NCBI GenBank assembly: GCA_022615805.1
Contig: JAKEGO010000020.1
Span: forward strand, 1 to 35,677
Reading direction: 5' to 3'
Origin: Thermoplasmata archaeon
GTDB lineage: Archaea > Thermoplasmatota > JAKEGO01
DNA length: 35,677 nt
The translations under genes and the position numbers were made by a program. The notes beneath the pieces were generated by a model. The model had not been told where the DNA came from and did not search any database. It saw only the letters and a program-made list of their open reading frames with translations. Positions 8,824 through 35,677 of this stretch are shown here, piece by piece; position 1 is the stretch's first letter, and every line of letters starts with the position of its first letter.

Positions 8824-8824
8824 C

Positions 8825-12304: not shown

Positions 12305-12316
12305 GTCATCGCCTCC

Positions 12317-13677: not shown

Positions 13678-13745
13678 GTCAGATCACCTCGGGGGACGCG
13701 TGCGGCAGCGCGGGAGGGTGCCGGCCACGATCGGGTCCCTTCATG

Positions 13746-21470: not shown

Positions 21471-22229
21471 TCAATGGCCCCCCTTGACATCGTCGCCGCT
21501 GGCCTCGATCTTCAACGCCTTGTAACGCCGCCTCAACTCCGCCTCGTCCATGTTGACGAGCTCGTCCATGTCGGCGTCGTACTTGCCTGACTCGATCTCG
21601 CGGAGGCGCGCCTCCAGGTCCCTGGACGGCGGGTCCAGGTACTTGCCGTTGAGCCTGCGCGCGAGCTGCGCGACGTGGTAGTGCTTGATGTCCGCCGGGC
21701 ACCGCATCGCGCACATGCCGCACTGTATGCAGTCGAAGGACAGCTCGGCGGCGCGCCTGATGTTCCCTCTGAGGGCGTTCTGTATGTACATCATCACCTG
21801 GATGTCCTGGGGGCATGACTTGGTGCACGTGTTGCAGGAGACGCAGCGGGCGATCTCGGGGTATATCGACAGTATCGTCGATTCCTCGGGCCTCACCTCG
21901 TCGATGTCGTACATCGCTTTCGAGGCCGGCACGAACGGTATCTGCACGAGGTACATGCCCTCCTCGACCAGCTGCTGGCATGCGAGGGCGAAGTGCAGCT
22001 TCTGCTCGTCCTCCTTCCTGTAGATCGTCGAGCAGGCGCCGCAGAAGCCGGCCCTGCAGCCGCAGCTCCTGATGAACTGGTACCCGGCGTACTCGATGGC
22101 CTTCATTATCGTGAACCCGACGGGGACGTCGTACTTCTTCCCCATGATGAAGATCTCGTAGGTGGGCGCCCCCTCCGGCGCCTCCGTCCCCTTTCCCGAA
22201 CGCGCTGCCGATGATCCGCTCTCGTACAT
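21471..22229 (-). CDS. SdhB/FrdB-like iron-sulfur subunit ([2Fe-2S] N-domain plus two CxxCxxCxxxCP motifs)
   Basis: 252 aa with RSCGCRAGFCGACS...LAC (SdhB-type Cx4Cx2C...C), CVSCNTCTKSCP and CIQCGMCAMRCP. The stop directly abuts the flavoprotein ATG. Confidence 0.8.
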   Translation of the reverse strand: MYESGSSAARSGKGTEAPEGAPTYEIFIMGKKYDVPVGFTIMKAIEYAGYQFIRSCGCRAGFCGACSTIYRKEDEQKLHFALACQQLVEEGMYLVQIPFVPASKAMYDIDEVRPEESTILSIYPEIARCVSCNTCTKSCPQDIQVMMYIQNALRGNIRRAAELSFDCIQCGMCAMRCPADIKHYHVAQLARRLNGKYLDPPSRDLEARLREIESGKYDADMDELVNMDEAELRRRYKALKIEASGDDVKGGH

Positions 22230-22247
22230 CCTACCACCTCTCGCCGA

Positions 22248-23126
22248 TCACGATATGACCCCCTTCTCCCGCAGGAGGGGGATCGGGTCGACCGCGTGGG
22301 TCTCGAAGCCGCAGCTCCCGGTCCCGAGGCCGAATGCGACGGCCATGAGCTGCGTGTAGTACATGACGGGCACCTGGGAATAACCGTCGATGAGCTCCTC
22401 CGCCTCCTTGCCCCGGACGTCGAGGTTGAACCGGCAGAGAGGGCAGGAGAGCATGATGGCGTCCACTCCGCGCCCGAGGGCGTAGCTGGCGATCTTGCCG
22501 GCGCGCCTGGCGGTGGACTCCCTCTGCTCGATGGTCCGGTACGTGCCGCAGCACTCGACCTTGTACGGGTTGTCGACGACCTCGCCGCCGAGCGCGACGA
22601 TGAGGTCTGCAAGGATGCGCGGCTCCTCGGCATCGTCGATCGCGACCTCCCTGGGCCTCAGGAGCATGCACCCGTAGTAGGGCATGATCCGCATCCCCTT
22701 GAGCGGCCTCTTGACCTTCTTCCTCATGACGTCGAAACCGACCTCGTCCCTCAGGAACTCGAGGAGGTGCTGGACCTTAACCGTTCCTTTGTAATCGTTC
22801 TCACGGTCCATGAAGGCGTTGAGGGTGTCGAGGTCCGCCTTTCGCGCCTTGACCCTCGTGTCGGTCTGTTTCAGGGTGTTGGAGCACATGTCGCAGATGA
22901 CGACGACGCGCTGGTGCCCCTGGTCCTCGACATGGACGAGGTTCCTCAGGGGTGCGACGTGGTGCATGAGATCGTCGGTGGTGAGGGAGGATGCGACGCC
23001 GCAGCAGTTCCACTCGTCCATCTCCCTGAGCTCGTGCCCGAGGGCGCGGAGGACCGCGACCGCGGAGGACTCGAGGTTCTTCGCGGACGTCTTCATCGTG
23101 CAGCCGGGGTAGTACAGCAGTTCCAT
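22248..23126 (-). CDS. hdrB: HdrB-like heterodisulfide reductase catalytic subunit (two CCG domains)
   Basis: 292 aa with YYPGC...WNCCGVAS...ICDMCSNTL and PYYGC...VECCGTYR...LSCPLCRFNL. Confidence 0.9.
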   Translation of the reverse strand: MELLYYPGCTMKTSAKNLESSAVAVLRALGHELREMDEWNCCGVASSLTTDDLMHHVAPLRNLVHVEDQGHQRVVVICDMCSNTLKQTDTRVKARKADLDTLNAFMDRENDYKGTVKVQHLLEFLRDEVGFDVMRKKVKRPLKGMRIMPYYGCMLLRPREVAIDDAEEPRILADLIVALGGEVVDNPYKVECCGTYRTIEQRESTARRAGKIASYALGRGVDAIMLSCPLCRFNLDVRGKEAEELIDGYSQVPVMYYTQLMAVAFGLGTGSCGFETHAVDPIPLLREKGVIS

Positions 23127-23130
23127 GGTA

Positions 23131-23562
23131 TCATCCGACGTTCTTCCTGAAGAGGCAGACGAAAGCCAGCTGCGGTATGCTGCGCTTCTCCTCCTCGGTG
23201 AGCCCGGTCATGTCCGTCTCGTCGATGTTGCTCCGGAGGACGATCTGCCGCAGGGCCTCCATGATCTTCGTGATGTTGAGGTCGCGGGGGCACCTCTCCG
23301 CGCACGTGAAGCAGGATGCGCACAACCATATCGTCTTCGAGCGGAGCACTTCCTTCCGGTCCATGATCACGTGTCGGAGGACCTCGTCGGGGGTCAGGTC
23401 CATCTCGTCGATGAAGGGGCACCCGGCGGCGCACGTGCCGCACTGGTAGCAACCGAACACGTTCTCGTCGCAGAGGTCCTGCAGCTCATCGATGAGAGTG
23501 CCCGATAACCTCGGGACCTTCTCCTGTGCGGCCTCCTCGCTCCTCCTGGATTCGGTCGCCAT
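23131..23562 (-). CDS. hdrC: HdrC-like 2x[4Fe-4S] subunit
   Basis: It starts at the ATG at 23562 (MATESRRSEE...), preceded by GGAGGG. It has CYQCGTCAAGCP and CASCFTCAERCP. Confidence 0.85.
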   Translation of the reverse strand: MATESRRSEEAAQEKVPRLSGTLIDELQDLCDENVFGCYQCGTCAAGCPFIDEMDLTPDEVLRHVIMDRKEVLRSKTIWLCASCFTCAERCPRDLNITKIMEALRQIVLRSNIDETDMTGLTEEEKRSIPQLAFVCLFRKNVG

Positions 23563-23863
23563 GATAGCCCTCCGTAATCGAATGGTGCAACAGCCCCTTC
23601 GCTGCCGTAGCAACCTGGATACCGTTTTTCCGTTATAAGGATTTGACGGTCGCGAACTGGTCCGATTTTGACATTTAATTGATATTTTTCAAAAAAAGGT
23701 ATCACATTGGCCAGTACCTGAGACCCGTTTTACCATTTTGCGAGTTATTACGGGTCGAATTCTCCCTCTCGGACGGAGACCCCCCCGCCAGTCGGCGGCT
23801 GAAGCGCCGCCCGCGGGACACGTAGCGGTGCATTGATGCGCCCGGGTACGGCGTACGCCGCGT
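23563..23863 (-). promoter_or_regulatory. Inter-operon region holding a probable oligo-T terminator for the upstream unit and TATA-like promoter elements for the hdrC-...-flxA unit
   Basis: This is the only gap over 100 nt between 35677 and 10184. The minus strand reads ...ACCTTTTTTTGAAAAATATCAATTAAATGTCAAAATCGG...GTCAAATCCTTATAACGGAAAAACGG... It has a T7 run (plus strand 23691-23697), AT-rich boxes (plus strand ~23672-23690 and 23629-23638) and two TTTGAC copies (plus strand 23642-23647 and 23667-23672). A GGCGGC/GCCGCC hairpin lies at 23794-23811. Confidence 0.4.
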
Positions 23864-26800
23864 TCATAGCACCTCGCATATCGCCCCCTTGATGAGGGAG
23901 AGGATCTGCTGGTCCTTGAAGCCCTTCTGCTGTATGGCCCCGGAGCGGCAGGTGGCGGCGCAGAGGCCGCACCCCTTGCAAAGGGCCTCGGTGACGGCTG
24001 CATGGCCGTCCTTGAGCTCGATGGCGTTGTAGGGGCACGCGGCGACGCACAGACCGCAGCCGACGCACATCGCATCGTCGACCGCCGAGACCGTGGCCTC
24101 GGCCTCGAAGTGGTCCTTCGAGATGATGGTGCAAGCCCTGCTTGCCGCGGCGTAGGCCTGGGCGATGGTCTCGCCTATGAACTTGGGGGAGTGGGCCATG
24201 CCGGCGAGGAAGACCCCCTCCGTGCTGAAGTCCACGGGCCTGAGCTTGACGTGCGCCTCGAGGAAGAACCCGTCCGAGTTGAGCGGGACCTTGAGGAGCT
24301 TGCCCAGTGCCTCGTTTCCGTCGGGGGGTGCGATCGCGGGGGACAATACCACCCTGTCCGCCGATATGTCGATGTCCTCGCCGAGTATCGGGTCCCGGAC
24401 TCGCACCTCGAGGCCGCCGCCGGTCCGGGCGACGACGGGCTTGCGGTCAAGGTCGTACCGGACGAAGATGACGCCCTTCTCCCGGGCCCGTTCGTACAGG
24501 GTCTCGTTGAAGCCGTACGTGCGCATGTCGCGGTAGAGGACGAACACGCGGGCGTCGGGGTAGCGTTCCACCACCCGCAGCGCGTTCTTCACCGCGTTCG
24601 TGCAGCATATCCTGCTGCAATATGGCCGGTGGTCCTCCCTCGAACCCACGCACTGTATCAGCGCCAGCGTCGAACCGGAGAGGTCGGCCCCCTCCGCCAG
24701 CATCCGCTCCAGGTCCGTCTGAGTGACGACGTCGGGGTCCTGGCCGCACAAGTACTCCGTCGGGACGGACTCGACCGCTCCTGTCGCGACCACGACGACG
24801 CCGTGCTCGATGACCGTCCCGGAACCGCCATGGTCGAGGGTGGTACGGTAGTTGCCGACGTACCCCTCGATGGTCGAGATGGCCGCGCCCGTATGGACCC
24901 GGACCCGCCCGTCCGCCTCGACCCGCGCCGTCAGCCCCCGGAGGAAGGCCTGGACGTCTGCCCCGTCCGCCGTCGTGTGGATGTGGTTCAGGTTGCCGCC
25001 GAGCCGGGAGTCGCGCTCGACGATGTCCACGTCGTAGCCCTGCTCCGCGATGGCGAGGGCCGCCGTCATCCCTGCGAGGCCTCCGCCGACGACCAGCGCT
25101 GACTGCGTCACGCCGAGCCTCACCTTGGACAACGGCTCGATGATCTGCGCCTTCGAGACCGCCATGCGGACGAGGTCGCGGGCCTTGGCTGTGGCGCTCG
25201 CCCTCTCGCCCATGTGGACCCACGAGCACTGGTCGCGGATGTTGGCCATCTCGAACAGGTGGGCGTTGAGCCCCGCCTCCCGCAGGGTCGACTGGAACAG
25301 CGGCTCGTGCGTGCGGGGCGTGCACGACGCCACGATCACGCGGTTGAGGTGGTGCTCCTGGATCGTCTCCACGAACCGCTTCTGCGTGTCCTGCGAGCAC
25401 GTGTAGAGGTTGTCCTCCGCGTGGACGACGTTCGGCAGGCCGCGGGCGTAGGCGACGAGCCCGGGCACGTCGATGTAACCGCCGATGTTGATCCCGCAGT
25501 GGCAGATGAAGACGCCGATCCGCGGAGCATCCCCCCGGACGTCCGCCTCGGCGGGGAGGGCCTTGCCGCCCACGAGGGTGTCCCTCGCGCTCGCTATCAG
25601 CCCGCTGGCCCTCGCGGCCGCCCCCGATGCCTCCATGACCGTCTCCGGGATGTCCTTCGGCCCCGCGAAAGAGCCGCAGACGAAGACCCCCTCGCGGGAC
25701 GTGCTGACGGGGTCGAGGCCGTCGACGGCGCAGAACCCCCTCTCCGTGAGTTCGACGCCGACGCGTTCGGCGAGCCGGCGGGCGCCCTCGCTCGCCGTGA
25801 AGCCCACAGAGAGCACGACGAGGTCGAACCTCTCCTCTTCGATGTGGCCATCCTCGGTCTCGTACCTTATCAGGAGGTCGTTGGTTTCCGGGTCCTCTTC
25901 GACCCTGGAGACGCGGCACCGCAGGAACCTGACCCCGTACTCGTCCCGCGCCCTGTCGTAATAGGCCTCGAAGCCCTTCCCGAAGGTGCGCATGTCCATG
26001 AAGAATATCGTCGGCTCGATGGTAGGGACGTGCTCCTTTGCGATCACCGCCTCCTTGATCGCATACGTGCAGCAGACGGACGAGCAGTAGTCCCTCCCGC
26101 AGCCGAGGTCCCTCGAGCCCACGCACTGCAACCACGCTATGCGCCGGGGCTGGACGCCGTCCGACGGCCTCAGGACGTGGCTCCTGAAGGGGCCGCTGGC
26201 GGAGAGGATGCGCTCGAACTCGATGCTCGATACGACGTTCGGGAAGCGCCCGTGGCCGTACTCGGGCTTGAGCGCCGGGTCGAACTCCTCGAAGCCCGGG
26301 CAGAGGATCACGCTGCCGACCCGCAGCTCCACAATCTCGTCCTTGTCGTCGTACCGGATCGCATTCGCGAGGCACAGGTTCTCGCACAGGCCGCAGCCGA
26401 TGCACCTCTCCCGGTCGATGGCGAAGGCGAGCGGGACCGCTTGCGGGTAGAGGAGGTAGATCGCACGCCTCTCGTTCATCCCCTCGTTGAAGGAGTTGAT
26501 GGCGTCGATGGGGCACTCCCTCGCGCAGACGCCGCAGCCGGTGCAGGCCTCGGGGTCCACGTAGCGGGCCTTTCGCCTGATCCTCACGCGGAAGTCGCCC
26601 GGCGTGCCCTCGAACCCCTCCACCTCGGAGTAGGTGACGAGCTCGATGTTCGGGTGGCGGCCGACATCGACGAGCTTCGGTGCCATTATGCACATGGAGC
26701 AGTCGTTGGTCGGGAAGGTCTTGTCCAGCTGGGCCATCGTGCCGCCGATGCCGGGCGCCGTGTCGACGAGGTAGACCTTGAACCCGGAGTTCGCTAGGTC

Positions 26801-26875
26801 GAGGGCCGCCTGCATGCCGGCGATGCCGCCGCCCACCACGAGGACCGCACCCACGGCATCGGGCGTCACCGACAC
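23864..26875 (-). CDS. hdrA: Giant two-module HdrA-like flavoprotein, paralog 2
   Basis: 1003 aa with VLVVGGGIAGMQAALD, DKTFPTNDCSMC, CTGCGVCARECP / CIGCGLCENLC, CVGSRDLGCGRDYCSSVCC, IGVFICHCGINI, ALVVGGGLAGMTAALAIAE, CVGSREDHRPYCSRICC and CVGCGLCVAACP / CKGCGLCAATCRSGAIQQKGF. The start is a GTG at 26875 (or the GTG at 26869), overlapping the upstream stop. Confidence 0.9.
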   Translation of the reverse strand: MSVTPDAVGAVLVVGGGIAGMQAALDLANSGFKVYLVDTAPGIGGTMAQLDKTFPTNDCSMCIMAPKLVDVGRHPNIELVTYSEVEGFEGTPGDFRVRIRRKARYVDPEACTGCGVCARECPIDAINSFNEGMNERRAIYLLYPQAVPLAFAIDRERCIGCGLCENLCLANAIRYDDKDEIVELRVGSVILCPGFEEFDPALKPEYGHGRFPNVVSSIEFERILSASGPFRSHVLRPSDGVQPRRIAWLQCVGSRDLGCGRDYCSSVCCTYAIKEAVIAKEHVPTIEPTIFFMDMRTFGKGFEAYYDRARDEYGVRFLRCRVSRVEEDPETNDLLIRYETEDGHIEEERFDLVVLSVGFTASEGARRLAERVGVELTERGFCAVDGLDPVSTSREGVFVCGSFAGPKDIPETVMEASGAAARASGLIASARDTLVGGKALPAEADVRGDAPRIGVFICHCGINIGGYIDVPGLVAYARGLPNVVHAEDNLYTCSQDTQKRFVETIQEHHLNRVIVASCTPRTHEPLFQSTLREAGLNAHLFEMANIRDQCSWVHMGERASATAKARDLVRMAVSKAQIIEPLSKVRLGVTQSALVVGGGLAGMTAALAIAEQGYDVDIVERDSRLGGNLNHIHTTADGADVQAFLRGLTARVEADGRVRVHTGAAISTIEGYVGNYRTTLDHGGSGTVIEHGVVVVATGAVESVPTEYLCGQDPDVVTQTDLERMLAEGADLSGSTLALIQCVGSREDHRPYCSRICCTNAVKNALRVVERYPDARVFVLYRDMRTYGFNETLYERAREKGVIFVRYDLDRKPVVARTGGGLEVRVRDPILGEDIDISADRVVLSPAIAPPDGNEALGKLLKVPLNSDGFFLEAHVKLRPVDFSTEGVFLAGMAHSPKFIGETIAQAYAAASRACTIISKDHFEAEATVSAVDDAMCVGCGLCVAACPYNAIELKDGHAAVTEALCKGCGLCAATCRSGAIQQKGFKDQQILSLIKGAICEVL

Positions 26876-27639
26876 TCACCCCCGGTCCCCGCGAGAACGT
26901 AGAGCGGGGAGTCGCCGTCCATCCCGCCCGAGTGGACGATCCCCCGGTCCTCCAGGTCGACGATGATGCGGAGGACGTCGCGCGGCGGCATGTCGAGGGC
27001 GCCCGCTATGGTCCCGACGGTCATGGGGCCCTTGCCGAGCTCGGCGCGGACCCGCTGCCGGAAGTGCTCGACCGAGATGTTGCGCCAAAGAACCTCGCGG
27101 AAGGCGTCGGCGTCGAGGACCTCCCCGTACGCGTTGCCGGCCTCCACGAGCTCGCGCTCCTTGCCGACCAGCCAACGGAGCCGGTCGCTCGCAGCGATCC
27201 CCTCTCCCACGGCGGCCCTCTCCGAGGCCCCCGGGACGCCGGACAGGGGCCCGAGGGCGCGCACCCGCCCGACGAAGCACGTGATGACCTCGCCGAAACG
27301 CTGGCCTTCCGCGGCCGAGACCCAGTCCAGGAGGAGGCGCTCGGGCTCGATGCCGACCTCCTCCAGGATCCTGCTCGCCATCGCCATCTTCCTTTCGGCC
27401 TGGTAGTTCCCGGTGAGGTAGTGGCAGTCGCCGGGGTGGCACCCGAGGACCGCAACGCCGTCTGCGCCGCCTCTGAAGGCCTCCAGCACAAGTACCGGGT
27501 CCACGCGGCCGGAGCACATGACGCGGATGACGCGGACGTTGGGAGGGTACTGCACCCGGGAGACGCCGGCGAGGTCGGCGCCGGCGTAGGCGCACCAGTT
27601 GCAGAGGAAACCCAGTATGCGTGGCTCCCAGGAGGTCAT
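26866..27639 (-). CDS. mvhD: MvhD-like [2Fe-2S] subunit fused to a ~120-aa C-terminal extension with a winged-helix-like segment
   Basis: It starts at the ATG at 27639 (MTSWEPRILGFLCNWCAYAGADLAGVSRVQYPPNVRVIRVMCSGRVDP...[10 protein letters not shown]), with an ATGA overlap to the hdrA stop. The extension ends ...GPMTVGTIAGALDMPPRDVLRIIVDLEDRGIVHSGGMDGDSPLYVLAG. Confidence 0.85.
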   Translation of the reverse strand: MTSWEPRILGFLCNWCAYAGADLAGVSRVQYPPNVRVIRVMCSGRVDPVLVLEAFRGGADGVAVLGCHPGDCHYLTGNYQAERKMAMASRILEEVGIEPERLLLDWVSAAEGQRFGEVITCFVGRVRALGPLSGVPGASERAAVGEGIAASDRLRWLVGKERELVEAGNAYGEVLDADAFREVLWRNISVEHFRQRVRAELGKGPMTVGTIAGALDMPPRDVLRIIVDLEDRGIVHSGGMDGDSPLYVLAGTGGECR

Positions 27640-30600
27640 GGCCGCACCCCCCCGAAGGCGTCGATCTGCGCCCCGATCTCGTCGTCCGTGAAGTGCCGCA
27701 TGGTGATCGCGAGCTTCGGGCACGAGGCGCCGCAGACGCCGCACCCCTTGCACGATGCCGATATGACCGTGGCCTTCCGGCCCCCCTCCATCAGCGATAT
27801 GTCGATCGCCTTGAAAGGGCACAGGGAGGCGCAGAGGCCGCATCCGATGCAGAGGTCGCGGTCGACGACCGCGACGGCGGGGTCCACGGTCACCCGCCCC
27901 TTGGACAGGAGCGTGGCGGCCCTCCCGGCCGCGGCGCAGGCCTGCGCGATCGACTCGTCAATCGTCTTCGGCGAATGGGCCATTCCGGCGAGGAAGACGC
28001 CGTCGGTGGCGAAGTCCACCGGCCGGAGCTTGACGTGGGCCTCCAGGAAGAAGCCGTCGGCGTTCCGCGGGACCTTGAGCATCTTCGCAAGGGCCATGCT
28101 GTCCTCCCTCGGCTCGATGGCGGGGCTCAGCGCGAGGAGGTCGGCGTCTATGACGATGTCCTCGCCGAGGATGGGCTCGCGGGCCGTTATCCTGAGGCGG
28201 CCTGCCTCGGAGGTCACGACCGGTGGTCCCTCCGGGTCGAACCTGATGAAGATGGCGCCGAGCTCCCGCGCCCTCTCGTAGGCGACCTCCCGCGTGCCGT
28301 AGGTGCGGATGTCGCGGTAGAGGACGAACACCCGGGCGTCGGGGAAGGTCTCGAGGATGCGGACTGCGTTCTTCACGGCGTCGATGCAGCACACGCGGCT
28401 GCAGTACGGGCGGGCCGTGTCGCGCGAGCCGACGCACTGTATCATCGCGACGGTCCTGCCGGACAGGTCCTCGCCATCGGCCACCATCCGCTCGAGCTGG
28501 CGCTGGGTGACGACGCGCTCGTCCATGCCGTACATGTACGCGTCCGGGACGGACTCGACGGCGCCGGTGGCGACGATGACGGCGCCGTGCTCGACGGCCG
28601 TCGTCGAGCCGGCAGCCTCGAGGACCGTCCTGAAGTTCCCGACATAGCCTTCGATGGACGCGATCGCGGACGAGAGACGGAGGTCGATGAGCGGGTGGCC
28701 CCGGACCCGCGAGACGAGCTCCGCCAGGTAGGACGGGACGTCGTCGTTCTCGAGCGTGTAGCGGGTGTGGAGGAGGTTGCCGCCGAGGCGGTCCTCCCGC
28801 TCGACCAGGGTCGCGGGGAATCCCTGTCCCGCGAGGGCGAGTGCGGCCGTCATGCCGGCGAGCCCGCCGCCGATCACCAGGGCGCGGGGGTTGACGTCGA
28901 GCGTCACCTCCTCGAGGGGCTCGATGAGGAGTGCCTTCGCCACGGCCATGCGCACCTGGTCGCTCGCCTTCGCGGTGGCCTCCTCGGGCGCGTTCATGTG
29001 GACCCACGAGCACTGGTCGCGTATGTTCGCCATCTCGAACAGGTGCGGGTTCAGCCCGGCCTCGCGGAGGGTCTCCTTGAAGAGGGGCTCGTGCGTCCGG
29101 GGCGTGCACGAGGCGACGATGACGCGGTTCAGGCCGTGCTCGCGGATCCGCTCCACGAGCGAGCGCTGGGCGTCCGCCGAGCACGTGTAGAGGCTGTCCT
29201 CGGCGAGGACGACTCCGGGCAGGCCCCTCGCGTACTCGACCACCGCCGGGACGTCGACGTAGGCGCCGATGTTGATGCCGCAGTGGCAGACGAAGACGCC
29301 CACCCTCGGCACCTGGCCACGGACGTCGATCTCGGCGGGGTGCTCGGCCCGGGTCACCAGGGCGCCGCGCGAGCCGGCGATGAGGGCGCCCGCCCTGGCG
29401 GCGGCGCCCGATGCCTCGATGACCGTCTCCGGGATGTCCTTTGGCCCCGCGAAGGCCCCGCAGACGAAGACGCCGGGGACGCTCGTCTCCATGGGCGACG
29501 TCTCGCCGGTCACGCAGAAGCCGAAGCGGTCCGTCTCGACGCCGACGAGGGACGCGAGGTCCCGGGCCGTCCGTCCGGGCTCGAGCCCGACCGAGAGGAC
29601 GACCATGTCGAACCTCTCCTCACGGAGGCTGCCGTCCTCCGCCTCGTACCTGACCACGAGGTCGTGGCTCCCGGGGGCCTCCCTGACGTCCGCGACGCGG
29701 GAACGGATGAAGCGGACGCCGTGCCTGTCCCTGGCGGCCGTGAAGTACTCCTCGAAGCCCTTGCCGAAGGTGCGCATGTCCATGTAGAACATCGTCGGCT
29801 CGATGCGCGGGTCGTGCTCCCTCGCGATGACGGCCTCCTTTATGCCGTAGGTGCAGCAGACGGACGAGCAGTACTCGTTGCCGCACCCCCGGTCCCGCGA
29901 GCCGACGCAGTTGATCCATGCGATGCGCCGCGGCTCGGCGCCGTCGGACGGGCGGCGCACGTGCCCCTCGTACGGCCCGCTGGCCGAGAGGATGCGCTCG
30001 AACTCGAGGCTCGTGACGACGTTCGGGAAGTTCTCGTATCCGTACTCCCCCTTCAGGCGAGGATCGAACCCCTCGAAACCGGGCGCGAGGACGATGGCCC
30101 CGACCTCGAGGACGCGCTCCCTGTCCTCCATGTCGAGGTCGACCGCGCCCGCAGGACAGACGGAGACGCACTTCTGCACGCACTTCCCCTTCGTGACCTG
30201 GAGGCAGCGCTCGGGGTCGACGACGTATCGCATCGGCACGGCCTGCGGGTACGGGATGTATATCGCCCCGCGCCTCGAGAGCCCCTCGTCGTAGTCGTCT
30301 GGGAACCTTCCCGCGAGGACGCACGCCTCGGCGCAGAGGCCGCAGCCCACGCAGGCTTCGGTGACGCGGCGGGCGCGCTCGCGCACCTTGACCCGGAACG
30401 CTCCGGCCTCGCCCTCCACAGCGACCACGTCGGCGTTGGTCGCGAGGTCGACGTTCGGGTGCCTCCCGATGTCGACGAGCTTCGGGGAGAGTATGCACAG
30501 CGAGCAATCGTTCGTGGGGAAGGTCTTGTCGAGCTGCGCCATGACGCCGCCGATGGCCGGCGAGCCCTCGACGAGGTGCACGCGGAAGCCCGCCTCCGCG

Positions 30601-30827
30601 AGGTCGAGCGCGGCCTGTATTCCTCCGACGCCCCCGCCCACGACGAGCGCGGCGCCGACCGGGGCGCGCGCTCCCGTCGCCCCGGGAACGCTTCCGCCGG
30701 ACGCACCGGGTTCGGATGCGCCGCCTCCAGCTGCCCTCGCTGCCTCGGGCACGCCCGGACCGGATACGGGGGTGGCGCCATCGTGACCGCAGGCGCACCC
30801 CTCCGTCCCCGCCGGCCTCGGGCTCAT
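27636..30827 (-). CDS. hdrA: Giant two-module HdrA-like flavoprotein, paralog 3, with a low-complexity CxC-containing N-terminal extension
   Basis: 1063 aa with ALVVGGGVGGIQAALD, DKTFPTNDCSLC, CVGCGLCAEAC, CVGSRDRGCGNEYCSSVCC, VGVFVCHCGINI, ALVIGGGLAGMTAALALAG, CVGSRDTARPYCSRVCC and CIGCGLCASLCP / CKGCGVCGASCP. The ATG at 30827 overlaps the hdrB stop (ATGA). Confidence 0.9.
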   Translation of the reverse strand: MSPRPAGTEGCACGHDGATPVSGPGVPEAARAAGGGASEPGASGGSVPGATGARAPVGAALVVGGGVGGIQAALDLAEAGFRVHLVEGSPAIGGVMAQLDKTFPTNDCSLCILSPKLVDIGRHPNVDLATNADVVAVEGEAGAFRVKVRERARRVTEACVGCGLCAEACVLAGRFPDDYDEGLSRRGAIYIPYPQAVPMRYVVDPERCLQVTKGKCVQKCVSVCPAGAVDLDMEDRERVLEVGAIVLAPGFEGFDPRLKGEYGYENFPNVVTSLEFERILSASGPYEGHVRRPSDGAEPRRIAWINCVGSRDRGCGNEYCSSVCCTYGIKEAVIAREHDPRIEPTMFYMDMRTFGKGFEEYFTAARDRHGVRFIRSRVADVREAPGSHDLVVRYEAEDGSLREERFDMVVLSVGLEPGRTARDLASLVGVETDRFGFCVTGETSPMETSVPGVFVCGAFAGPKDIPETVIEASGAAARAGALIAGSRGALVTRAEHPAEIDVRGQVPRVGVFVCHCGINIGAYVDVPAVVEYARGLPGVVLAEDSLYTCSADAQRSLVERIREHGLNRVIVASCTPRTHEPLFKETLREAGLNPHLFEMANIRDQCSWVHMNAPEEATAKASDQVRMAVAKALLIEPLEEVTLDVNPRALVIGGGLAGMTAALALAGQGFPATLVEREDRLGGNLLHTRYTLENDDVPSYLAELVSRVRGHPLIDLRLSSAIASIEGYVGNFRTVLEAAGSTTAVEHGAVIVATGAVESVPDAYMYGMDERVVTQRQLERMVADGEDLSGRTVAMIQCVGSRDTARPYCSRVCCIDAVKNAVRILETFPDARVFVLYRDIRTYGTREVAYERARELGAIFIRFDPEGPPVVTSEAGRLRITAREPILGEDIVIDADLLALSPAIEPREDSMALAKMLKVPRNADGFFLEAHVKLRPVDFATDGVFLAGMAHSPKTIDESIAQACAAAGRAATLLSKGRVTVDPAVAVVDRDLCIGCGLCASLCPFKAIDISLMEGGRKATVISASCKGCGVCGASCPKLAITMRHFTDDEIGAQIDAFGGVRP

Positions 30828-31714
30828 TCGGCCCCCCCGGCGCCCCCGAGCTTCGCCATCAGCTCGGTGGGCTTTACCTTGTTAAGCCTGAAGCCGAGCT
30901 CCTTCGGGTCGACGCCGTAGGCGAGCCCCAGGACCTGCGGGTAGTACAGAACGGGGATGCCGTACGTCTCCCCGAACTCCTGCTCGATCTTGCGCTGGTT
31001 GTCCTCGTACATCACGGTGCAGAACGGGCATATCGAGACCAGGGCGTCGACGCCCGCCTTCCTGACCGACTCGAGCTTCGCCTTCGACATCCGGAGGGCG
31101 ATCCCCTGGTCCACGCCGAGGATGGCGCCGCCGCAGCAGTCGAGCTTTCCCTCGTAGTCGACCCATTTCGCGCCCGTGACGGAGACGAGCTCCTCCACGG
31201 TATGCGGGTCCTCCGGGTCGTCGAACCCCTCGTATATGTGCGCCGGCCGCAGGTAGTGGCACCCGTAATGGACCGCGAACCTGAGCCCGCTGAGGTCACG
31301 CACGACGGGCTCCTTCAGACGCTCGAGCCCGACGTCCTCGTACAGCACCCTCGAGAAGTGCTTCACCTTCACGCCGGGGCGGTACTCCCTGTCGACGAGC
31401 GCGAGCCGCCCGTTGACGCGGGCGAGGACGTCCGGATGGGCGTCCAGCTCCTTCTGCGCCTCGGTCAGGACCCCGGTGCAGGCGCTGCAGAGGGTGCAGA
31501 CGTCGAGCCCCATTTCCCCCGCCACGGCCAGGTTGCGGGCGGCCATCGCCATGGCGTCCTCCCTCGATGTCGACTTCATGGGGTAGCCGCAGCACGAGAA
31601 CGGCTCGACGTCGACGAATTCGATGCCGAGCTTCGCAGCCACGGCCCGGGCGCTCAGCTCGTAGTTCAGGCCCCGGACCGGTATCGTGCACCCGAGGAAG
31701 AGCGCGTACCTCAT
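30824..31714 (-). CDS. hdrB: HdrB-like subunit (two CCG domains)
   Basis: 296 aa from the ATG at 31714 (MRYALFLGCTIPVRG...FSCCGYPM...CTLCSACTG; HYGCHYLRP...LDCCGGAIL...SICPFCTVMY). Only this part of track ORF 30824..32116 is real. An ATGA overlap joins it to hdrC. Confidence 0.9.
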   Translation of the reverse strand: MRYALFLGCTIPVRGLNYELSARAVAAKLGIEFVDVEPFSCCGYPMKSTSREDAMAMAARNLAVAGEMGLDVCTLCSACTGVLTEAQKELDAHPDVLARVNGRLALVDREYRPGVKVKHFSRVLYEDVGLERLKEPVVRDLSGLRFAVHYGCHYLRPAHIYEGFDDPEDPHTVEELVSVTGAKWVDYEGKLDCCGGAILGVDQGIALRMSKAKLESVRKAGVDALVSICPFCTVMYEDNQRKIEQEFGETYGIPVLYYPQVLGLAYGVDPKELGFRLNKVKPTELMAKLGGAGGAE

Positions 31715-32205
31715 CCCGTGGTCACCTCCTCGAGTACCGGGTCCCTGCATATCTCTCGCACCTCGGGGATCTCCTTGCGGACCGGCGGGAGGCCCATCTT
31801 CTCGCGCTTCTTGTTGTCGAAGTCCTCGACCTCGTAGAGCCTTCCGTGCGCCATCAGGAGCCGCGCCTGCTCCCTGAAGGACGGGTGGACGTGACCCTCG
31901 CGCATCGCGATGTTCTTCAGCGCCGCCATGATGTCGGTGAGGCAGACGTCCTGGGGGCAGCGGTCGTAGCACGTGTAGCACGTGCTGCAGAGCCATATGA
32001 AGTCGGACGAGAGCACCTGCTCCCGCATCCCGAGGAGGACCATCCGGATGATCTTCCGGGGGTTGTACCTGTCGTCGATCTCGCGGACAGGGCACCCGGC
32101 GGTGCAGGTGCCGCACGCGAAGCAGCGGGAGATCTCCTTGCCGCCAAGCTCCGCCGCGACCTCGCGCCAGAAGCCGGCGTCGAGCTCGCTCGTCCTTATG
32201 GTCAT
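31711..32205 (-). CDS. hdrC: HdrC-like 2x[4Fe-4S] subunit
   Basis: 164 aa from the ATG at 32205 (MTIRTSELDAGFW...CFACGTCTAGCP...CSTCYTCYDRCP). Only the tail of track ORF 31711..33225 is real. Confidence 0.85.
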   Translation of the reverse strand: MTIRTSELDAGFWREVAAELGGKEISRCFACGTCTAGCPVREIDDRYNPRKIIRMVLLGMREQVLSSDFIWLCSTCYTCYDRCPQDVCLTDIMAALKNIAMREGHVHPSFREQARLLMAHGRLYEVEDFDNKKREKMGLPPVRKEIPEVREICRDPVLEEVTTG

Positions 32206-33254
32206 CACTTCGCCTCCATTACAGCCTTCTTCACGTCCTCCGGGGTGACCCCGGGGGCCTCGATGCCCGACGATTCGTAGAAACCCTCGACGGCCGAGAC
32301 GACCTCGGAGCCCTCGCGCTCCACGTCGCGCAGGGAGTCCTCCAGCCCGGAAAGCTCCTCCTTCGGGAGCATGGTGAAGTCCCCGGTGATGCCGATGTCG
32401 GCGATCCGCCGGCCGCGCACCTCCTGGGCCGTGCGGACCAGGCCGCCCCGGGCCTTGTACAACCCGTAGAGGATCTCGACGCCCTCGGCTATCTTGACGC
32501 CCCTGGGCATCCTCGGCACCTTCCGGTACAGGAACTCGGGGGAGTCGAACCACGCCGCCAGCTCGGCCATCTTCGCCACGACGTCGTCCGACAGTGCGAC
32601 GGGGATCAGCGGTCCCAGCAGCTCCCCGAACCTGCGGTGAAGCGCGCGGGTTATCTCTCCCCGCGGGGGCAACGCGTCGAGCTCGCGCCTCATCGTCGTG
32701 ACGTGCTCCTCGATGGTCTTGAAGACCTTGTCCCGGAACTTCTCGTCCGGTACCCTGACCGCCCTCGCCATGGCGCCGTAGTCGAAGTCCATCATCATGG
32801 AGCCGACGAACACCATCGATCCGTCGATGTTCGCCCCTCCGAGGCCGCCGATCTTCCTGCCTTCCGCGGTCACGATGTCGTTGACCTCGCGGAACCTCGT
32901 GTCGATGCCGAACTCGCCGTAGGCCTCGATCGGCGGGGCCGAGAGGTGACGGTAGATGTCCCTGACCCCCTTCGGGAACGCCGGGTTCCCGCGGTCCCAG
33001 ATCACGTGGAAGAATATCTGGTCGCGGTCGAGGTAGACCGTCCCGCCGCCGACCTCCCTCCGGAACAGCGGCAGGCCCTCGCGCTCCATCTGCGCGAGGT
33101 CGACCTCCTGCGAGGGGTCCTGGAAGTAACCTATGCTGATGAAGGGTCGGTCCGGGGAGACGGTCACGACCGCCTCGACGCCCATGCGGGCGAGGGCGTG
33201 GAATATCAGCATCGACTGCTTCCACGGCCTGACGCCGAGGTCGAGGAGGTACAT
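32205..33254 (-). CDS. lplA: Lipoate-protein ligase A-like protein (BPL/LPL catalytic domain plus C-terminal accessory domain)
   Basis: 349 aa with PFISIGYFQD, FRREVGGGTVYLD and NDIVTAEGRKIGGLGG. The last matches the GxKxxG catalytic-lysine motif of LplA. The stop overlaps the hdrC ATG by 1 nt. Confidence 0.85.
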   Translation of the reverse strand: MYLLDLGVRPWKQSMLIFHALARMGVEAVVTVSPDRPFISIGYFQDPSQEVDLAQMEREGLPLFRREVGGGTVYLDRDQIFFHVIWDRGNPAFPKGVRDIYRHLSAPPIEAYGEFGIDTRFREVNDIVTAEGRKIGGLGGANIDGSMVFVGSMMMDFDYGAMARAVRVPDEKFRDKVFKTIEEHVTTMRRELDALPPRGEITRALHRRFGELLGPLIPVALSDDVVAKMAELAAWFDSPEFLYRKVPRMPRGVKIAEGVEILYGLYKARGGLVRTAQEVRGRRIADIGITGDFTMLPKEELSGLEDSLRDVEREGSEVVSAVEGFYESSGIEAPGVTPEDVKKAVMEAK

Positions 33255-33311
33255 CTTGTCCCCGGTCAGGTCATCGCCCCCTGGCCGGTCTTTCGCCCGC
33301 GCGTTCGTCGG

Positions 33312-34373
33312 TCATTTCACCGCCTTCCATATGATGTCCTCGATGCTCCTGACCTGGAGAACCCGCTCGCCCTTCGCCGCCGCGGCGTTCGCCGCCTTCC
33401 TCAGGACGGTCTCGCACGTGGGGCAGGCCGTCACGATGGTGTCGGCGCCCGTGTCGAGCGCCTCGCGGACCCTCGCCATGGCGATGTCGTCCGACAGCGC
33501 GGCGTCGGACATGAGGATGCCGCCGCCGCCCCCGCAGCACATGGACCCCTTGCCGTGGTGGGTCATCTCGACCACCTCGCAGCCGAGCCGCCGGAGTATC
33601 TGCCGGGGCTCGTCGATGATGCCGAGGGTGCGGGAGAAGTCGCAGGGGTCGTGGTAGGTCACCTTGAGCCCCAGATCGGCCTCGGGGAGGCGCCCGAGGA
33701 TGGCCTGGAGGACGTGCCTCGCCTCGACCCCGTGGCCCTCGCGGAGGAAGACCGTGCAGGTCGGGCAGAGCGCTATCGCCTCGCCGCCGGCGCCGAAGGC
33801 CTCGCGGAACCGTTCCTTGTGCCCCTCGAAGTCGTCGACGAAGCCCATGACCTCCATCGGGAAGCCGCAGCAGACCTCGTCCACGACCTTCGGCTGGATG
33901 CCGAGGGCCTCCAGGATGCGGACGAACTTCTTCACGTTGTTGGGGCGCGACATGTACTGGCACCCGAGGAAGAGGGGGACCTCGCCGTCGCGGACGGGCG
34001 CCCTGACGTCCGCGTCGCCGTATATGTTCCCCGTGGCCTTCACGTTCTCGATGACGCGCCGGTGGACGTCGCTCGCGAAGCCCGCCCGGACGAGGTCGGC
34101 CCTCGCCGCGGCAACGATGCCCATTATCTCGACGTTCGCGGGGCACTTGGACATGCAGTCCCTGCAGGTCGTGCACTGGAAGAGCTTCATGGCCACCGCC
34201 GCGGAGGGCTCGATCTCGCCCTTGAGCAGGCCGTACGAGAGGATCACCTTTCCGCGGGGCCCGTCGGTGTCCCACCCTGTCCTGAGCCGAACGGGACACT
34301 CCTCGAGGCAGTAGGCGCAGCGGATGCAGACGTACATCTCGTTCTCGATCCTCGACAGCTCCCGGGCCTCCAT
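33312..34373 (-). CDS. HdrD/GlcF-like Fe-S protein (2x[4Fe-4S] ferredoxin domain plus two CCG domains)
   Basis: 353 aa with CIRCAYCLEECP and CTTCRDCMSKCP. CCG domain 1 is FLGCQY...VCCGFPM...LCPTCTVFL. CCG domain 2 is YHDPCDF...MCCGGGGG...TACPTCETVL. The ATG lies 1 nt after the upstream stop. Confidence 0.85.
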   Translation of the reverse strand: MEARELSRIENEMYVCIRCAYCLEECPVRLRTGWDTDGPRGKVILSYGLLKGEIEPSAAVAMKLFQCTTCRDCMSKCPANVEIMGIVAAARADLVRAGFASDVHRRVIENVKATGNIYGDADVRAPVRDGEVPLFLGCQYMSRPNNVKKFVRILEALGIQPKVVDEVCCGFPMEVMGFVDDFEGHKERFREAFGAGGEAIALCPTCTVFLREGHGVEARHVLQAILGRLPEADLGLKVTYHDPCDFSRTLGIIDEPRQILRRLGCEVVEMTHHGKGSMCCGGGGGILMSDAALSDDIAMARVREALDTGADTIVTACPTCETVLRKAANAAAAKGERVLQVRSIEDIIWKAVK

Positions 34374-34374
34374 G

Positions 34375-35677
34375 TCACCGGCCCCCTATGGTGTAACGGA
34401 GGGGCGTCGCCGTCCTCCAGTCGTCCGGGGCGTCCTGGAGCTTGTGCGGGTTGAGGATCCCCTTCGGGTCGAGCGCGGCCTTTATCGACCGGAACAGCTC
34501 GAGCTGGGCCGCCTTCTCGGCCTTCCACATGGGGGCCTTCGAGAGCCCGATGCCGTGCTCGCCGGAGGTGGTCCCGCCGACCTCGCGGACGTGGGCGTAG
34601 AGCTCTTCCATCGCCCGCGCGGCCGCGGCCCACTGCGCCTCGCTGGCGGTCTCCATCAGGATCTTCGTGTGGATGAGCCCCGCGCCGCAGTGGCCGTAGG
34701 CGCTCATCACGATGCCGTGCCTGTCGGCGACCTCGTGGACCTTCCTCACGGTCTCGGCTATCCTCGAGACGGGGACGGCCAGGTCGTCGGCGAGCGACGT
34801 CGATACGATCCCTTCCCGGTACCGGGAGAGGGAGGGGAAGAGCTTCTGGCGGCCAGCGTAGATGCGGGCCATCTCCTTCGGGTCCGTGCTCACCTCGATC
34901 CCGTGGCCGCCGTTCGCCTCGAAGACCCGGGACACCTCGCCGATCTCCCTTTCGACCTCCTCGCGGGTCATGCCGTTGCACTCGAACATGATGATGGCCG
35001 CCGCTTCGCGCAGACCGAGGCCGAGGGAGGTGTTGACGGCGCGTATCGCGATGTCGTCCATCAGTTCCATCATCGACGGCCTGAGGCCGGTGGTCACGAC
35101 CGCCGTGATGGCCGAGCCGGCCTCCTCGAGGGTGTCGAAGTGCGCTATGCCCATGGCGCGGTCCTTCGGGAGCGGCGCTAGGAGCAGTGTGGCCTCGGTC
35201 ACCACGGCCAGGGTGCCCTCCGATCCAACGATGAGCCGGTGGACCTGGTAGCCGGACGACTCGACGCGGGTCCTGCCCCCGAGGTCGACCGCCTCGCCGC
35301 TCGCGAAAACGACCTTCATGCCCAGCACGGCATCGCGGGTGGCGCCGTACTTGACGGCACGGTTCCCCGACGCGTTCGTGCCTATCATTCCGCCGATCGT
35401 GCAGATGTTACCGGAGCTCGGCGTGGGCGGGAAGAAGAGCCCGTGGGGCTTCAGCTGCCTGTTGAGCTCGTCGTTGACGTCCCCCGCCTCGACCCTGCAG
35501 AGCATGTCGCCCGGGCTGATCTCCAGGACGCGGGACATGCGCTTCATGTCGAGGACGATGCCGCCGTCCACGGGGACCGCCTGGCCGGACATGGCGGAGC
35601 CCGCTCCGCGCGGAATGACCGGGACGCCGTTCCCGTTCGCGTACCTCAGTATCCCCTGCACCTCCTCCGTGCTCCCG
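34375..35677 (-). CDS. FAD-linked oxidase, GlcD / D-lactate dehydrogenase family. The N-terminus lies beyond the window end
   Basis: The frame stays open to 35677 (..GSTEEVQGILRYANGNGVPVIPRGAGSAMSGQ...). It has the FAD-binding PCMH-type segment GGMIGTNASGNRAVKYG and the C-terminal GGTTSGEHGIGLSK...DPKGILNPHK. The track start at 35661 is an internal GTG. Confidence 0.9.
   Translation of the reverse strand, partial: GSTEEVQGILRYANGNGVPVIPRGAGSAMSGQAVPVDGGIVLDMKRMSRVLEISPGDMLCRVEAGDVNDELNRQLKPHGLFFPPTPSSGNICTIGGMIGTNASGNRAVKYGATRDAVLGMKVVFASGEAVDLGGRTRVESSGYQVHRLIVGSEGTLAVVTEATLLLAPLPKDRAMGIAHFDTLEEAGSAITAVVTTGLRPSMMELMDDIAIRAVNTSLGLGLREAAAIIMFECNGMTREEVEREIGEVSRVFEANGGHGIEVSTDPKEMARIYAGRQKLFPSLSRYREGIVSTSLADDLAVPVSRIAETVRKVHEVADRHGIVMSAYGHCGAGLIHTKILMETASEAQWAAAARAMEELYAHVREVGGTTSGEHGIGLSKAPMWKAEKAAQLELFRSIKAALDPKGILNPHKLQDAPDDWRTATPLRYTIGGR

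Follow-up and report, generated by a model that had tools for sequence, protein, structure and literature searches.

A lipoate ligase gene within an HdrABC-MvhD and GlcD-HdrD operon of a Thermoplasmata archaeon suggests a lipoyl carrier protein as candidate disulfide of heterodisulfide reductase-type enzymes

Contig JAKEGO010000020.1 of a Thermoplasmata archaeon, a stretch of 35,677 nucleotides (nt) with a guanine plus cytosine (GC) content of 66.6% which was analysed over its whole length (the window), carries an operon of eight genes in which a gene for an LplA-like lipoate ligase lies between the genes of a GlcD-HdrD type dehydrogenase and those of an HdrABC-MvhD type heterodisulfide reductase (Hdr). 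We found that a conserved neighbourhood joins this ligase family, a GcvH-like carrier protein and CCG-type enzymes, such as HdrB and HdrD, across both archaea and bacteria. Judging from the sequences, we propose that the operon encodes two enzymes linked via protein-bound lipoate, namely an HdrABC-MvhD complex with flavin-based bifurcation or confurcation of electrons and a D-2-hydroxyacid dehydrogenase made of GlcD and HdrD, a proposal to which we give an even chance of being correct.

The operon is made up of eight consecutive open reading frames (ORFs) on the minus strand, running from position 35677 down to 23864, as given by the ORF list and its translations. A preliminary description of this DNA had reported eight co-directional, tightly coupled coding sequences, and its coordinates and junctions match ours exactly. 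In the order of transcription the genes are as follows, with the gene of the proposed carrier given last:

34375 to window end, minus strand: GlcD-like protein, 5'-truncated, 433 amino acids (aa) present
33312-34373, minus strand: HdrD/GlcF-like protein
32205-33254, minus strand: LplA-like protein
31711-32205, minus strand: HdrC
30824-31714, minus strand: HdrB
27636-30827, minus strand: HdrA, fused type II, 1063 aa
26866-27639, minus strand: MvhD with a C-terminal extension, 257 aa
23864-26875, minus strand: HdrA, second fused type II, 1003 aa, GTG start
6612-7043, minus strand: GcvH-family lipoyl-carrier protein with a QSAKW motif, proposed target of the ligase

Two of the junctions within the operon are gaps, of 1 nt and 57 nt, and at the other five the genes overlap, once by 1 nt, three times by 4 nt and once by 10 nt. 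Pfam and NCBIfam agree with every assignment at the level of domains, and all NCBIfam equivalog scores for the operon fall below the curated cut-offs. As the full eight-gene order recurs in a Thermoplasmatota metagenome-assembled genome of 60% GC (locus L002) and in contig L094, and the glcD-hdrD-lplA-hdrC-hdrB core is found in at least 20 further loci, the arrangement is not due to chance.

We think that the lipoate ligase, which the preliminary description listed and left uninterpreted, is the key gene of the operon and its most informative one. Its product matches the Pfam domain LplA-B_cat (PF21948, 2.4e-33) and is composed of this catalytic domain and an LplB-like C-terminal part. The top match in the PDB is LplA of Thermoplasma acidophilum (2ars, 2.4e-19), with which the catalytic lysine (K134) and the segment RREVGGGTVY, corresponding to the RRxxGGGxVYxD loop, can be aligned. 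Furthermore, an AlphaFold2 model of the protein, in which the catalytic domain is confident, gave a TM score (template modelling) of 0.82 against 3r07_A in Foldseek. Scores against the ligase profiles were 111 for TIGR00545 (cut-off 280), 55.9 for LplB (cut-off 65) and 18.1 for Lip_prot_lig_C (cut-off 24). The family to which the protein belongs has 1972 homologs at E ≤ 1e-10, the best 120 of which are at least 60% identical and nearly all 349-352 aa long, and its hosts include archaea, WOR-3, Hydrothermota, Cloacimonas-like and other bacteria.

In order to study the surroundings of this family we assembled 88 loci with a family member, two from genomes (by a scan with narrow peptide patterns) and 80 from metagenomes (by an alignment scan), in addition to those collected earlier. 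In loci of high GC content, L002 among them, the ORF caller erred on hdrC and hdrD, and adjacency was therefore counted by tblastn with the proteins of the window. In 39 of the 88 loci hdrC(-hdrB-hdrA) comes directly after the ligase gene, and in three more hdrC-hdrB stands directly before it, so that the ligase gene adjoins hdr genes in about half of the loci. The pair glcD-hdrD precedes lplA in at least 20 complete cases, to which nine cases truncated by contig ends can be added. Since the loci span 30-67% GC and come from archaea as well as bacteria, the gene order has been kept across very different genomes. A second count took those lplA genes that were non-identical and flanked by at least 6 kb, 50 in all, and yields lower bounds owing to ORF calling: within 10 kb of lplA we found a gene for a CCG protein in 33 cases and a GcvH-like gene in 16, and each of these 16 also had the CCG protein. 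Two loci (L061 and L063) contain two paralogs of the ligase family each, of 333-338 aa and 350 aa, one of which adjoins a GcvH-like gene and two genes for UbiA-like membrane proteins, while the other lies between hdrB and hdrA.

The candidate target of the ligase is the GcvH-like protein encoded at 6612-7043. It matches Pfam GCV_H at 2.6e-39 and exceeds the cut-offs of two NCBIfam models, with 137.2 bits for NF002270 (cut-off 117) and 127.3 for TIGR00527 (cut-off 115.85). The lysine in its QSAKW motif aligns with the lipoyl-lysine of Mycobacterium tuberculosis GcvH (3ift), and its single cysteine is found in GETCGKIQSAKW, with none near either terminus. When the ORFs neighbouring lplA were clustered, GcvH-family proteins of about 144 aa with the motif (E/Q)S(A/G)KW appeared in 17 loci, inside or beside the LplA-Hdr clusters. 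Orthologs of the window copy are 42-68% identical to it, the upper value being that of the copy in L003, which stands just after hdrA.

Several gene orders recur around the carrier gene. The order lplA-hdrC-hdrB-hdrA-gcvH is found in L055, L065, L074 and L078, and the order gcvH-lplA-fumarase-hdrA-hdrC-hdrB' in L086, L088 and L089, where it is continued by sdhB (L088, L089) and sdhA (L089), the L086 sequence stopping at hdrB'. A third order, LarA-glcD-hdrD-gcvH-hdrD2-(NarI-like membrane protein)-lplA, is seen in L042, L046, L056 and L068. These last four loci (about 3500-11050) begin with an ABC transporter, are devoid of HdrCBA and encode a second HdrD-like protein of 396 aa and a NarI/HdrE-like protein, a composition which suggests that this variant could be a membrane-bound, quinone-linked version of the carrier system. 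The association also held when approached from the other side: we searched for homologs of the carrier and picked four solely for their long contigs, and Hdr genes were present beside all four, with glcD-hdrD-lplA within 8 kb in three of them. A bacterial example, from Stahlbacteria (L092), has the operon NiFe-hydrogenase-glcD::hdrD-lplA-hdrC-hdrB-hdrA::mvhD-gcvH.

The neighbours of the GcvH-like genes are thus Hdr, LplA, LarA and OsmC genes, and no gcvT or gcvP was present beside them in the window or in the loci looked at. In L090, the closest relative, the genes for 2-oxoacid:ferredoxin oxidoreductase (OFOR), HdrA, MvhD, a further protein, a Fer4_22 protein, an NAD-binding protein, LarA, OsmC and GcvH follow one another in the same direction, an order that matches the other Hdr module of the window. 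In the window itself a 383-aa ORF at 7141-8292 (minus strand), absent from this position in L090, stands between the OsmC and GcvH-like genes. Judged by eye from its sequence, it is presumably a glycosyltransferase, and it looks like a local insertion into an otherwise conserved synteny. On the other side of the GcvH-like gene lies a Macro-domain gene (5965-6522, plus strand).

In the mechanism that we propose, the LplA-like ligase would modify the conserved lysine of the GcvH-family carrier with lipoate (or octanoate), and the lipoyl disulfide/dithiol of the carrier would then be the substrate of both CCG proteins, HdrB and HdrD. The lipoyl protein would thereby take the role which the heterodisulfide of coenzyme M and coenzyme B (CoM-S-S-CoB) plays in methanogens. 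Electrons would pass between HdrB and the bifurcating flavin of the fused HdrA by way of HdrC, ferredoxin being the low-potential partner and MvhD the connection to a hydrogenase or NAD(P)H module, whereas HdrD would link the carrier to the flavin adenine dinucleotide (FAD) of GlcD and hence to a 2-hydroxyacid/2-oxoacid couple. Such a carrier would give a reason for two complete CCG enzymes in one operon, since one could load and the other unload the dithiol that they share. CoM-S-S-CoB of methanogens follows a similar logic, in that Hdr makes the thiols and Tfr or Mcr restores the disulfide, and so does LbpA in the sHdr system. Candidates for the mid-potential donor are found in the relatives, either as a GltD/NfnB-like NAD(P)H module in HdrA or as an Mvh-type NiFe hydrogenase at the start of the operon. 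We infer from sequence and gene context that the carrier is lipoylated and that HdrB and HdrD act on it, and the substrate assigned to GlcD and the directions considered for the reaction are likewise inferences.

Two net reactions may be considered. In the first, donor, oxidised ferredoxin and 2-oxoacid would yield reduced ferredoxin and 2-hydroxyacid, so that H2 or NAD(P)H could drive the reduction of ferredoxin, the high-potential electrons being finally accepted by a 2-oxoacid or fumarate. The second would be the reverse, a confurcation driven by the hydroxyacid as in Ldh-EtfAB. The midpoint potentials are about -290 mV for lipoamide, about -190 mV for lactate/pyruvate, about +30 mV for fumarate/succinate and about -450 to -500 mV for ferredoxin, and electron transfer from the reduced carrier to a 2-oxoacid or to fumarate would therefore be downhill at the thiol step. 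Confurcation driven by lactate is possible, though uphill at HdrD unless product ratios pull the reaction.

Several observations weigh against a dedicated lipoyl carrier. At the level of the ligase, the C-terminal domain is modelled poorly, with predicted local distance difference test (pLDDT) values below 50 at residues 269-301, and the histidine of the canonical ...VYHD motif is replaced by leucine throughout the family. About one third of the family members with long flanks have neither a CCG nor a GcvH neighbour and some bacterial ones adjoin DsrE/TusA/DsrH/NifU or Nitro_FeMo-Co genes, so the family is not exclusive to Hdr contexts. As to the carrier, the GcvH-like gene of the window lies 25 kb from the ligase gene, its product could be a normal glycine-cleavage H protein since it passes the GcvH equivalog cut-offs, and no lipoyl synthase (LipA, LipS1/S2) was seen in the window. 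With free lipoamide lying about 100 mV below lactate/pyruvate, oxidation of lactate would be uphill at the HdrD step. Finally, the similarity of HdrB to its methanogen counterpart is what would be expected for an enzyme acting on CoM-S-S-CoB, and a small-molecule disulfide could also be its substrate.

Some of these observations would be accounted for if the genes were co-located and functionally separate, with a stand-alone GlcD-HdrD, an HdrABC-MvhD acting on some other disulfide, of a small molecule or another protein, and LplA and GcvH serving lipoylation and glycine cleavage in the cell at large, all gathered in a redox 'supercluster' for the sake of regulation. The equivalog scores of the GcvH-like protein and the presence of the LplA family outside Hdr contexts are in line with such an arrangement, and, as the contig is crowded with redox and tricarboxylic acid (TCA) cycle genes, the neighbourhood signals could be inflated. 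Nevertheless, we regard this explanation as quite unlikely, given that the GcvH-like genes have no gcvT or gcvP beside them, that CCG genes accompany 33 of the 50 ligase genes and all 16 GcvH-like neighbours, and that the 1-nt overlap of lplA and hdrC, indicative of translational coupling, argues for stoichiometric co-production.

The dehydrogenase at the start of the operon bears on a further explanation. The GlcD-like protein matches Pfam FAD_binding_4 (3.4e-42) and FAD-oxidase_C (1.2e-57) and reaches 362.8 bits with the glcD model TIGR00387 (cut-off 567.9). The solved structure nearest to it is LctD (7qh2_C, E = 1.9e-71, 244 bits), nearly equalled by the second, a glycolate oxidase (9qgz, E = 6.5e-70, 239 bits). 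The HdrD-like protein is made up of a Fer4 dicluster domain (Fer4_8) and two CCG domains (Pfam CCG twice, 1.3e-27), and its top NCBIfam model is TfrB, under the cut-off. Read directly, both this protein and HdrB have complete C..CC..CxxC motifs in both halves, which bears out the earlier statement that the operon encodes two complete CCG-type catalytic proteins. GlcD and HdrD form a single fused protein in L092.

It may be that no thiol shuttle exists and that GlcD-HdrD docks on HdrABC-MvhD, wired to it by Fe-S clusters only, in an Etf-independent confurcating D-lactate dehydrogenase for which the ligase would be a passenger or a housekeeping gene. The tight coupling of the eight genes, the closeness of GlcD to LctD of the confurcating Ldh-EtfAB, the linkage of GlcD-HdrD to HdrCBA in at least 20 loci, together with the fusion in L092, and the remote position of the GcvH-like gene, both in the window and in several related loci, would all fit such a complex. 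A passenger, however, would not have kept its place between hdrD and hdrC over 30-67% GC and in both domains, and direct wiring gives no role to two complete CCG sites or to a GcvH-like gene that recurs inside the operon. Moreover, as is established for HdrB, the CCG sites of known enzymes act on thiol/disulfide substrates and are not plain wires. We therefore consider direct docking unlikely, and prefer the lipoyl carrier as the link between the two enzymes.

Pairs of the GlcD-HdrD or Dld type, with the two proteins separate or fused, occur in Archaeoglobus, sulfate reducers, Bathyarchaeia and Methanomethylicia and several papers on metagenome-assembled genomes discuss them as a possible lactate:heterodisulfide link. 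The pair described here differs from them in its translational coupling to lplA-hdrCBA-mvhD-hdrA. The suggestion that it is a D-lactate dehydrogenase was made in the preliminary description, and it stands in so far as D-lactate is plausible, LctD being the best solved relative of GlcD, and as GlcD-HdrD is linked to HdrCBA in related loci; lactate itself is not established as the substrate, for reasons which come in part from another gene of the window:

8825-10081, minus strand: homolog of LarA-family nickel-pincer 2-hydroxyacid racemases, nearest to malate racemases

This LarA homolog had been thought to fit a funnelling of L/D-lactate. It scores 312.7 bits with NF052593 (LarAH6, cut-off 500) and 229.1 with the lactate racemase model NF033504 (cut-off 460). 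Among the LarA homologs of four related loci (L002 1922-3157, L042 3531-4817, L090 8248-9489 and L093 12329-13582), LarAH6 was the top model in three and the 2-hydroxyacid racemase model LarAH10 in L042, all under the cut-off, and the lactate racemase model was never the top-scoring one for the window protein or these four. We rejected LarA as support for lactate, as malate-racemase models rank higher and all scores lie below the cut-offs. LarA homologs adjoin GlcD-HdrD(-GcvH)-LplA in L042, L046, L068 and L093. In addition, the position upstream of glcD is taken by a gene for an NAD-dependent malate dehydrogenase in L003 and by one of the Ldh_1 family in L094. It is this ranking of LarA with malate racemases, together with the malate dehydrogenase and Ldh_1 genes upstream of glcD, that leaves lactate unestablished. 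TCA cycle genes surround the system, namely those for OFOR, SucCD and fumarate reductase in the window, and for fumarase, aconitase and isocitrate dehydrogenase in relatives. D-lactate/pyruvate is thus the leading candidate for the couple of GlcD, and D-malate/oxaloacetate a serious alternative.

The remaining subunits resemble those of bifurcating Hdr complexes. HdrC is a Fer4 dicluster protein with two [4Fe-4S] clusters predicted (TIGR03290, 123.2 bits, cut-off 160), and its orthologs after lplA in related loci are 60-86% identical. HdrB scores 275.6 bits with TIGR03288 (cut-off 345.15), aligns over its full length and with conserved cysteines to methanogen HdrB (9sfi_C, 2.3e-72; 5odc_B, 6e-69) and has all ten cysteines of the two CCG motifs. 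The HdrA encoded at 27636-30827 reaches 1021.6 bits with the HdrA2 model NF040770 over three stretches (cut-off 1100). It contains two thioredoxin-reductase-like FAD domains in a single chain and one NDCxxC motif (Cys194/197), found in the first half only.

The composition of these large HdrA proteins was seen most clearly when the second one was aligned with HdrA of Methanothermobacter wolfeii (5odc_A). Residues 11-375 correspond to 146-511 of 5odc_A, that is, the FAD domain, the inserted ferredoxin and Cys194/197, residues 450-607 to the N-terminal cluster domain (3-160), and residues 828-998 to the end of the second FAD domain and the C-terminal ferredoxin (475-649). All domains of 5odc_A are thus matched, spread over the two halves of the fused protein, and the halves are complementary, one having Cys197 and no N-terminal domain and the other having the N-terminal domain. 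On the basis of this alignment each HdrA of about 1000 aa is a fused pseudo-heterodimer. The class has been described in anaerobic methanotrophic archaea (ANME) and Moorella (PMC9012536) and is called type II HdrA (PMC12054007). The two HdrA proteins of the operon had been suggested to form a hetero-oligomeric bifurcating core, an idea that we rejected, since each chain alone is already a pseudo-heterodimer of the described class. Identity is 61% between the two and 43-47% between them and a third copy, encoded at 13746-16970. In relatives the HdrA encoded after hdrB is longer (1466-1654 aa), being of type II and interrupted by a GltD/NfnB-like module for NAD(P)H binding; examples are found at 7545-11945 of L003, 12416-17380 of L014, 12475-17220 of L031, 11081-15697 of L061 and 10838-15271 of L065. 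The insertion occurs twice in L014, and the HdrA proteins of the window are without it.

MvhD, encoded between the two hdrA genes, matches Pfam FlpD ([2Fe-2S]) clearly at 7.8e-55. The winged helix-turn-helix (wHTH) domain which had been assigned to its C-terminal extension is weak in the protein's own sequence (DprA_WH, E = 0.0014), yet many homologs of about 256 aa carry precomputed matches to TrmB, ArsR (HTH_5), IclR or MarR. This MvhD-winged-helix family is large, with at least 120 clusters at ≥ 50% identity, each of about 256 aa. Its gene typically lies between those of fused HdrA proteins; two hdrA genes flank it in L002, L031, L034, L035, L059, L093 and L094, and there are three HdrA-MvhD repeats in L093.

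A tie between Hdr proteins and lipoate has a precedent in sulfur oxidisers, where the sHdr system requires the lipoylated GcvH-like protein LbpA and its own LplA (PMC6067878). It is found in Hyphomicrobium denitrificans, Thioalkalivibrio, Aquifex and Sulfolobales (Cao et al. 2018, PMC6067878), and the ligases associated with sHdr are of archaeal type (PMC10332631). Both systems tie CCG-containing Hdr proteins to a GcvH-like carrier and have an LplA-type ligase within the cluster. They differ in gene order, which is hdrC1B1A-hyp-hdrC2B2 in sHdr-LbpA and glcD-hdrD-lplA-hdrC-hdrB-hdrA-mvhD-hdrA here, and in HdrA, which in sHdr is short (about 350 aa) and non-bifurcating, whereas the HdrA proteins of the window are fused, of the bifurcating type and of 1003 and 1063 aa, with ferredoxin domains. 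LbpA combines its lipoyl-lysine with two conserved cysteines near the termini, while the GcvH-type carrier of the window has kept the lysine and lacks these cysteines. The sHdr clusters also contain LipS1/S2 radical-SAM and DsrE/TusA genes and operate in aerobic or microaerobic sulfur oxidation, in contrast to the anaerobic carbon/TCA context seen here; no DsrE, TusA, rhodanese or LipS1/S2 was found among the Pfam matches of the scanned ORFs of the window, nor in L091, L092 and L094. Membership of the sHdr-LbpA system was rejected on gene order, type of HdrA, carrier cysteines and the missing sulfur transferases.

A related possibility is that the carrier binds sulfane sulfur, as persulfide or trisulfide, and that the CCG enzymes reduce or oxidise this sulfur, as a sulfur or polysulfide reductase/oxidase of the cytoplasm that is tied to bifurcation. 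Experimental support exists for a single Hdr-lipoate system, sHdr-LbpA, and this one does oxidise sulfur (PMC6067878), and bacterial members of the LplA family stand by DsrE-TusA-DsrE-DsrE-DsrH, NifU and cysteine desulfurase genes in L006/L007. We nevertheless hold a role in sulfur handling to be very improbable here, as DsrE, TusA and rhodanese genes are absent from the window and from the archaeal operons looked at, the carrier is without the two LbpA cysteines, HdrA is of the large bifurcating type with MvhD instead of the short sHdrA, and the constant partners are enzymes of carbon metabolism (GlcD, LarA, fumarate reductase and OFOR). The bacterial string itself (8138-12958 of L006/L007, also in L038-L040) reads DsrE-TusA-DsrE-DsrE-DsrH-LplA-DUF1858-NifU-cysteine desulfurase, with an LplA 62% identical to the family member of the window. 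Several Nitro_FeMo-Co genes and genes for MinD-type Fe-S ATPases are found upstream of it in L006/L007, and the string hints at a link of the LplA-like family to sulfur relay or Fe-S metabolism outside Hdr contexts.

The MvhADG-HdrABC complex of methanogens (5ODC, 8RVU, 9SFI) has in common with the operon HdrB, HdrC, the HdrA domains and MvhD, which can be aligned from end to end with all cluster ligands, and relatives of the operon include an Mvh-type NiFe hydrogenase; the operon differs in its two fused type II HdrA proteins, its MvhD-wHTH, the embedded ligase and hydroxyacid dehydrogenase and the equivalog scores below cut-off. LctBCD of Acetobacterium woodii (Ldh-EtfAB, 7QH2) includes the nearest solved relative of GlcD and may catalyse the same overall reaction, that is, hydroxyacid and reduced ferredoxin to 2 NAD(P)H or H2. 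EtfAB is missing here, however, and the bifurcating flavin would reside in HdrA and the link would run via a CCG protein and the proposed lipoyl carrier. The fused HdrA proteins resemble ANME HdrA3/4 and that of MetFV-HdrABC-MvhD of Moorella (PMC9012536, PMC12054007) in having two thioredoxin-reductase domains per chain and a complementary distribution of Cys197 and the N-terminal domain, but the half with Cys197 comes first here and the half with the N-terminal domain second, and two copies flank MvhD-wHTH.

As to the extent of the operon, a scan for sigma-70 promoters and terminators was set aside because the organism is an archaeon, and a simple scan for AT-rich stretches and T-runs was made over the whole window instead. 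Only two stretches of at least 10 nt with at least 90% A+T are present in the 35.7 kb (3239-3252 and 23671-23697), both of them intergenic and located where transcription units begin or end. The second lies in the spacer directly 3' of the last gene:

23614-23863, 250 nt: spacer at the 3' boundary of the operon, with AT-rich stretch 23671-23697 and T-run 23691-23697

This T-run is the sole minus-strand run of six or more T in the operon half of the window. Given this boundary, the eight genes look like one transcription unit and the downstream genes HdrC'-HdrB'-SdhB-SdhA like a separate one. The 57-nt gap between hdrD and lplA, the widest within the operon, is GC-rich and shorter in relatives (1-15 nt in L002, L003 and L014, 10 nt in L094, 42 nt in L091), in keeping with the single, tightly coupled unit of the preliminary description. 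At the other end, glcD runs off the window with no stop and no start codon, and the promoter lies beyond it. The size of the missing 5' end, whose recovery had been called for, can be estimated from relatives, where GlcD has 476-487 aa against 433 aa here, so that about 45-50 aa are missing; their own sequence lies beyond the window. In L094 a spacer of 509 nt separates glcD from a divergent gene of the Ldh_1 family (malate/lactate-type), which indicates that glcD is the first gene of the operon.

Two further redox units lie on the contig:

19824-23562, minus strand: HdrC', HdrB' (SdhE-like CCG protein), SdhB-like and SdhA/TfrA-like proteins, directly downstream of the operon behind the AT-rich spacer
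10184-16970, minus strand: other Hdr module, with fused HdrA (1074 aa), MvhD (143 aa), a 316-aa protein, a Fer4_22 protein and an FAD/NAD protein

The first unit, in which the top NCBIfam match is TfrA (305.6 bits) and the HdrB/SdhE-like scores are 153/147 bits, all under the cut-offs, is similar to a thiol:fumarate reductase and could be a second enzyme that draws on the dithiol carrier. Like TfrAB of methanogens it would use a dithiol as donor for fumarate, with the differences that its CCG and ferredoxin parts are separate and that the thiol would be the lipoyl carrier instead of CoM-SH/CoB-SH. The lipoyl carrier may indeed also serve fumarate reduction, because gcvH-lplA-fumarase-hdrA precedes a related HdrB' set in L086/L088/L089. 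The Fer4_22 and FAD/NAD proteins of the second unit are sulfhydrogenase beta-like and gamma-like, respectively, and the 316-aa protein (12306-13256) had no Pfam or NCBIfam match.

The substrate of HdrABC-MvhD in non-methanogens is routinely termed an 'unidentified heterodisulfide' (e.g. PMC11291895, PMC9723716), and Kohtz et al. 2022 considered that GcvH may carry such a disulfide of HdrB in Culexarchaeia (PMC9723716). In a literature search that had most subscription journals outside it, we found no report of a lipoate ligase in an hdr operon of the bifurcating type or of a glcD-hdrD-lplA-hdrCBA-gcvH cluster, and no paper mentioning lipoate together with glcD and hdrD. The cluster is best seen as a widely conserved variant which joins bifurcating HdrABC-MvhD and Hdr-lipoate systems, an idea partly anticipated by Kohtz et al. 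2022. We suggest tentatively, as a possibility with a real if minority chance, that a lipoylated GcvH-like protein and its dedicated LplA are the general 'heterodisulfide' of CCG enzymes in non-methanogenic anaerobes of both domains. Such a currency would cover HdrABC, HdrD-linked dehydrogenases, Tfr-like fumarate reductases and membrane HdrDE-like complexes, and the protein-bound thiol would connect hydroxyacid oxidation, fumarate reduction, hydrogenases and ferredoxin reduction via flavin-based bifurcation.

HdrABC-MvhD is widespread in non-methanogenic archaea and bacteria which make neither coenzyme M nor coenzyme B, and the operon names a concrete and testable candidate for the missing disulfide of these Hdr enzymes. 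Should the proposal be wrong, the cluster would still represent a variant of Hdr-linked hydroxyacid dehydrogenases that is well conserved and has apparently not been described. If it is correct, the atypical role of lipoate would extend from the sHdr system of sulfur oxidisers to anaerobic carbon and hydrogen metabolism, the clustering of CCG-containing hydroxyacid dehydrogenases and fumarate reductases with Hdr would find an explanation, and models of energy conservation would change for Thermoplasmatota and for several candidate bacterial phyla.

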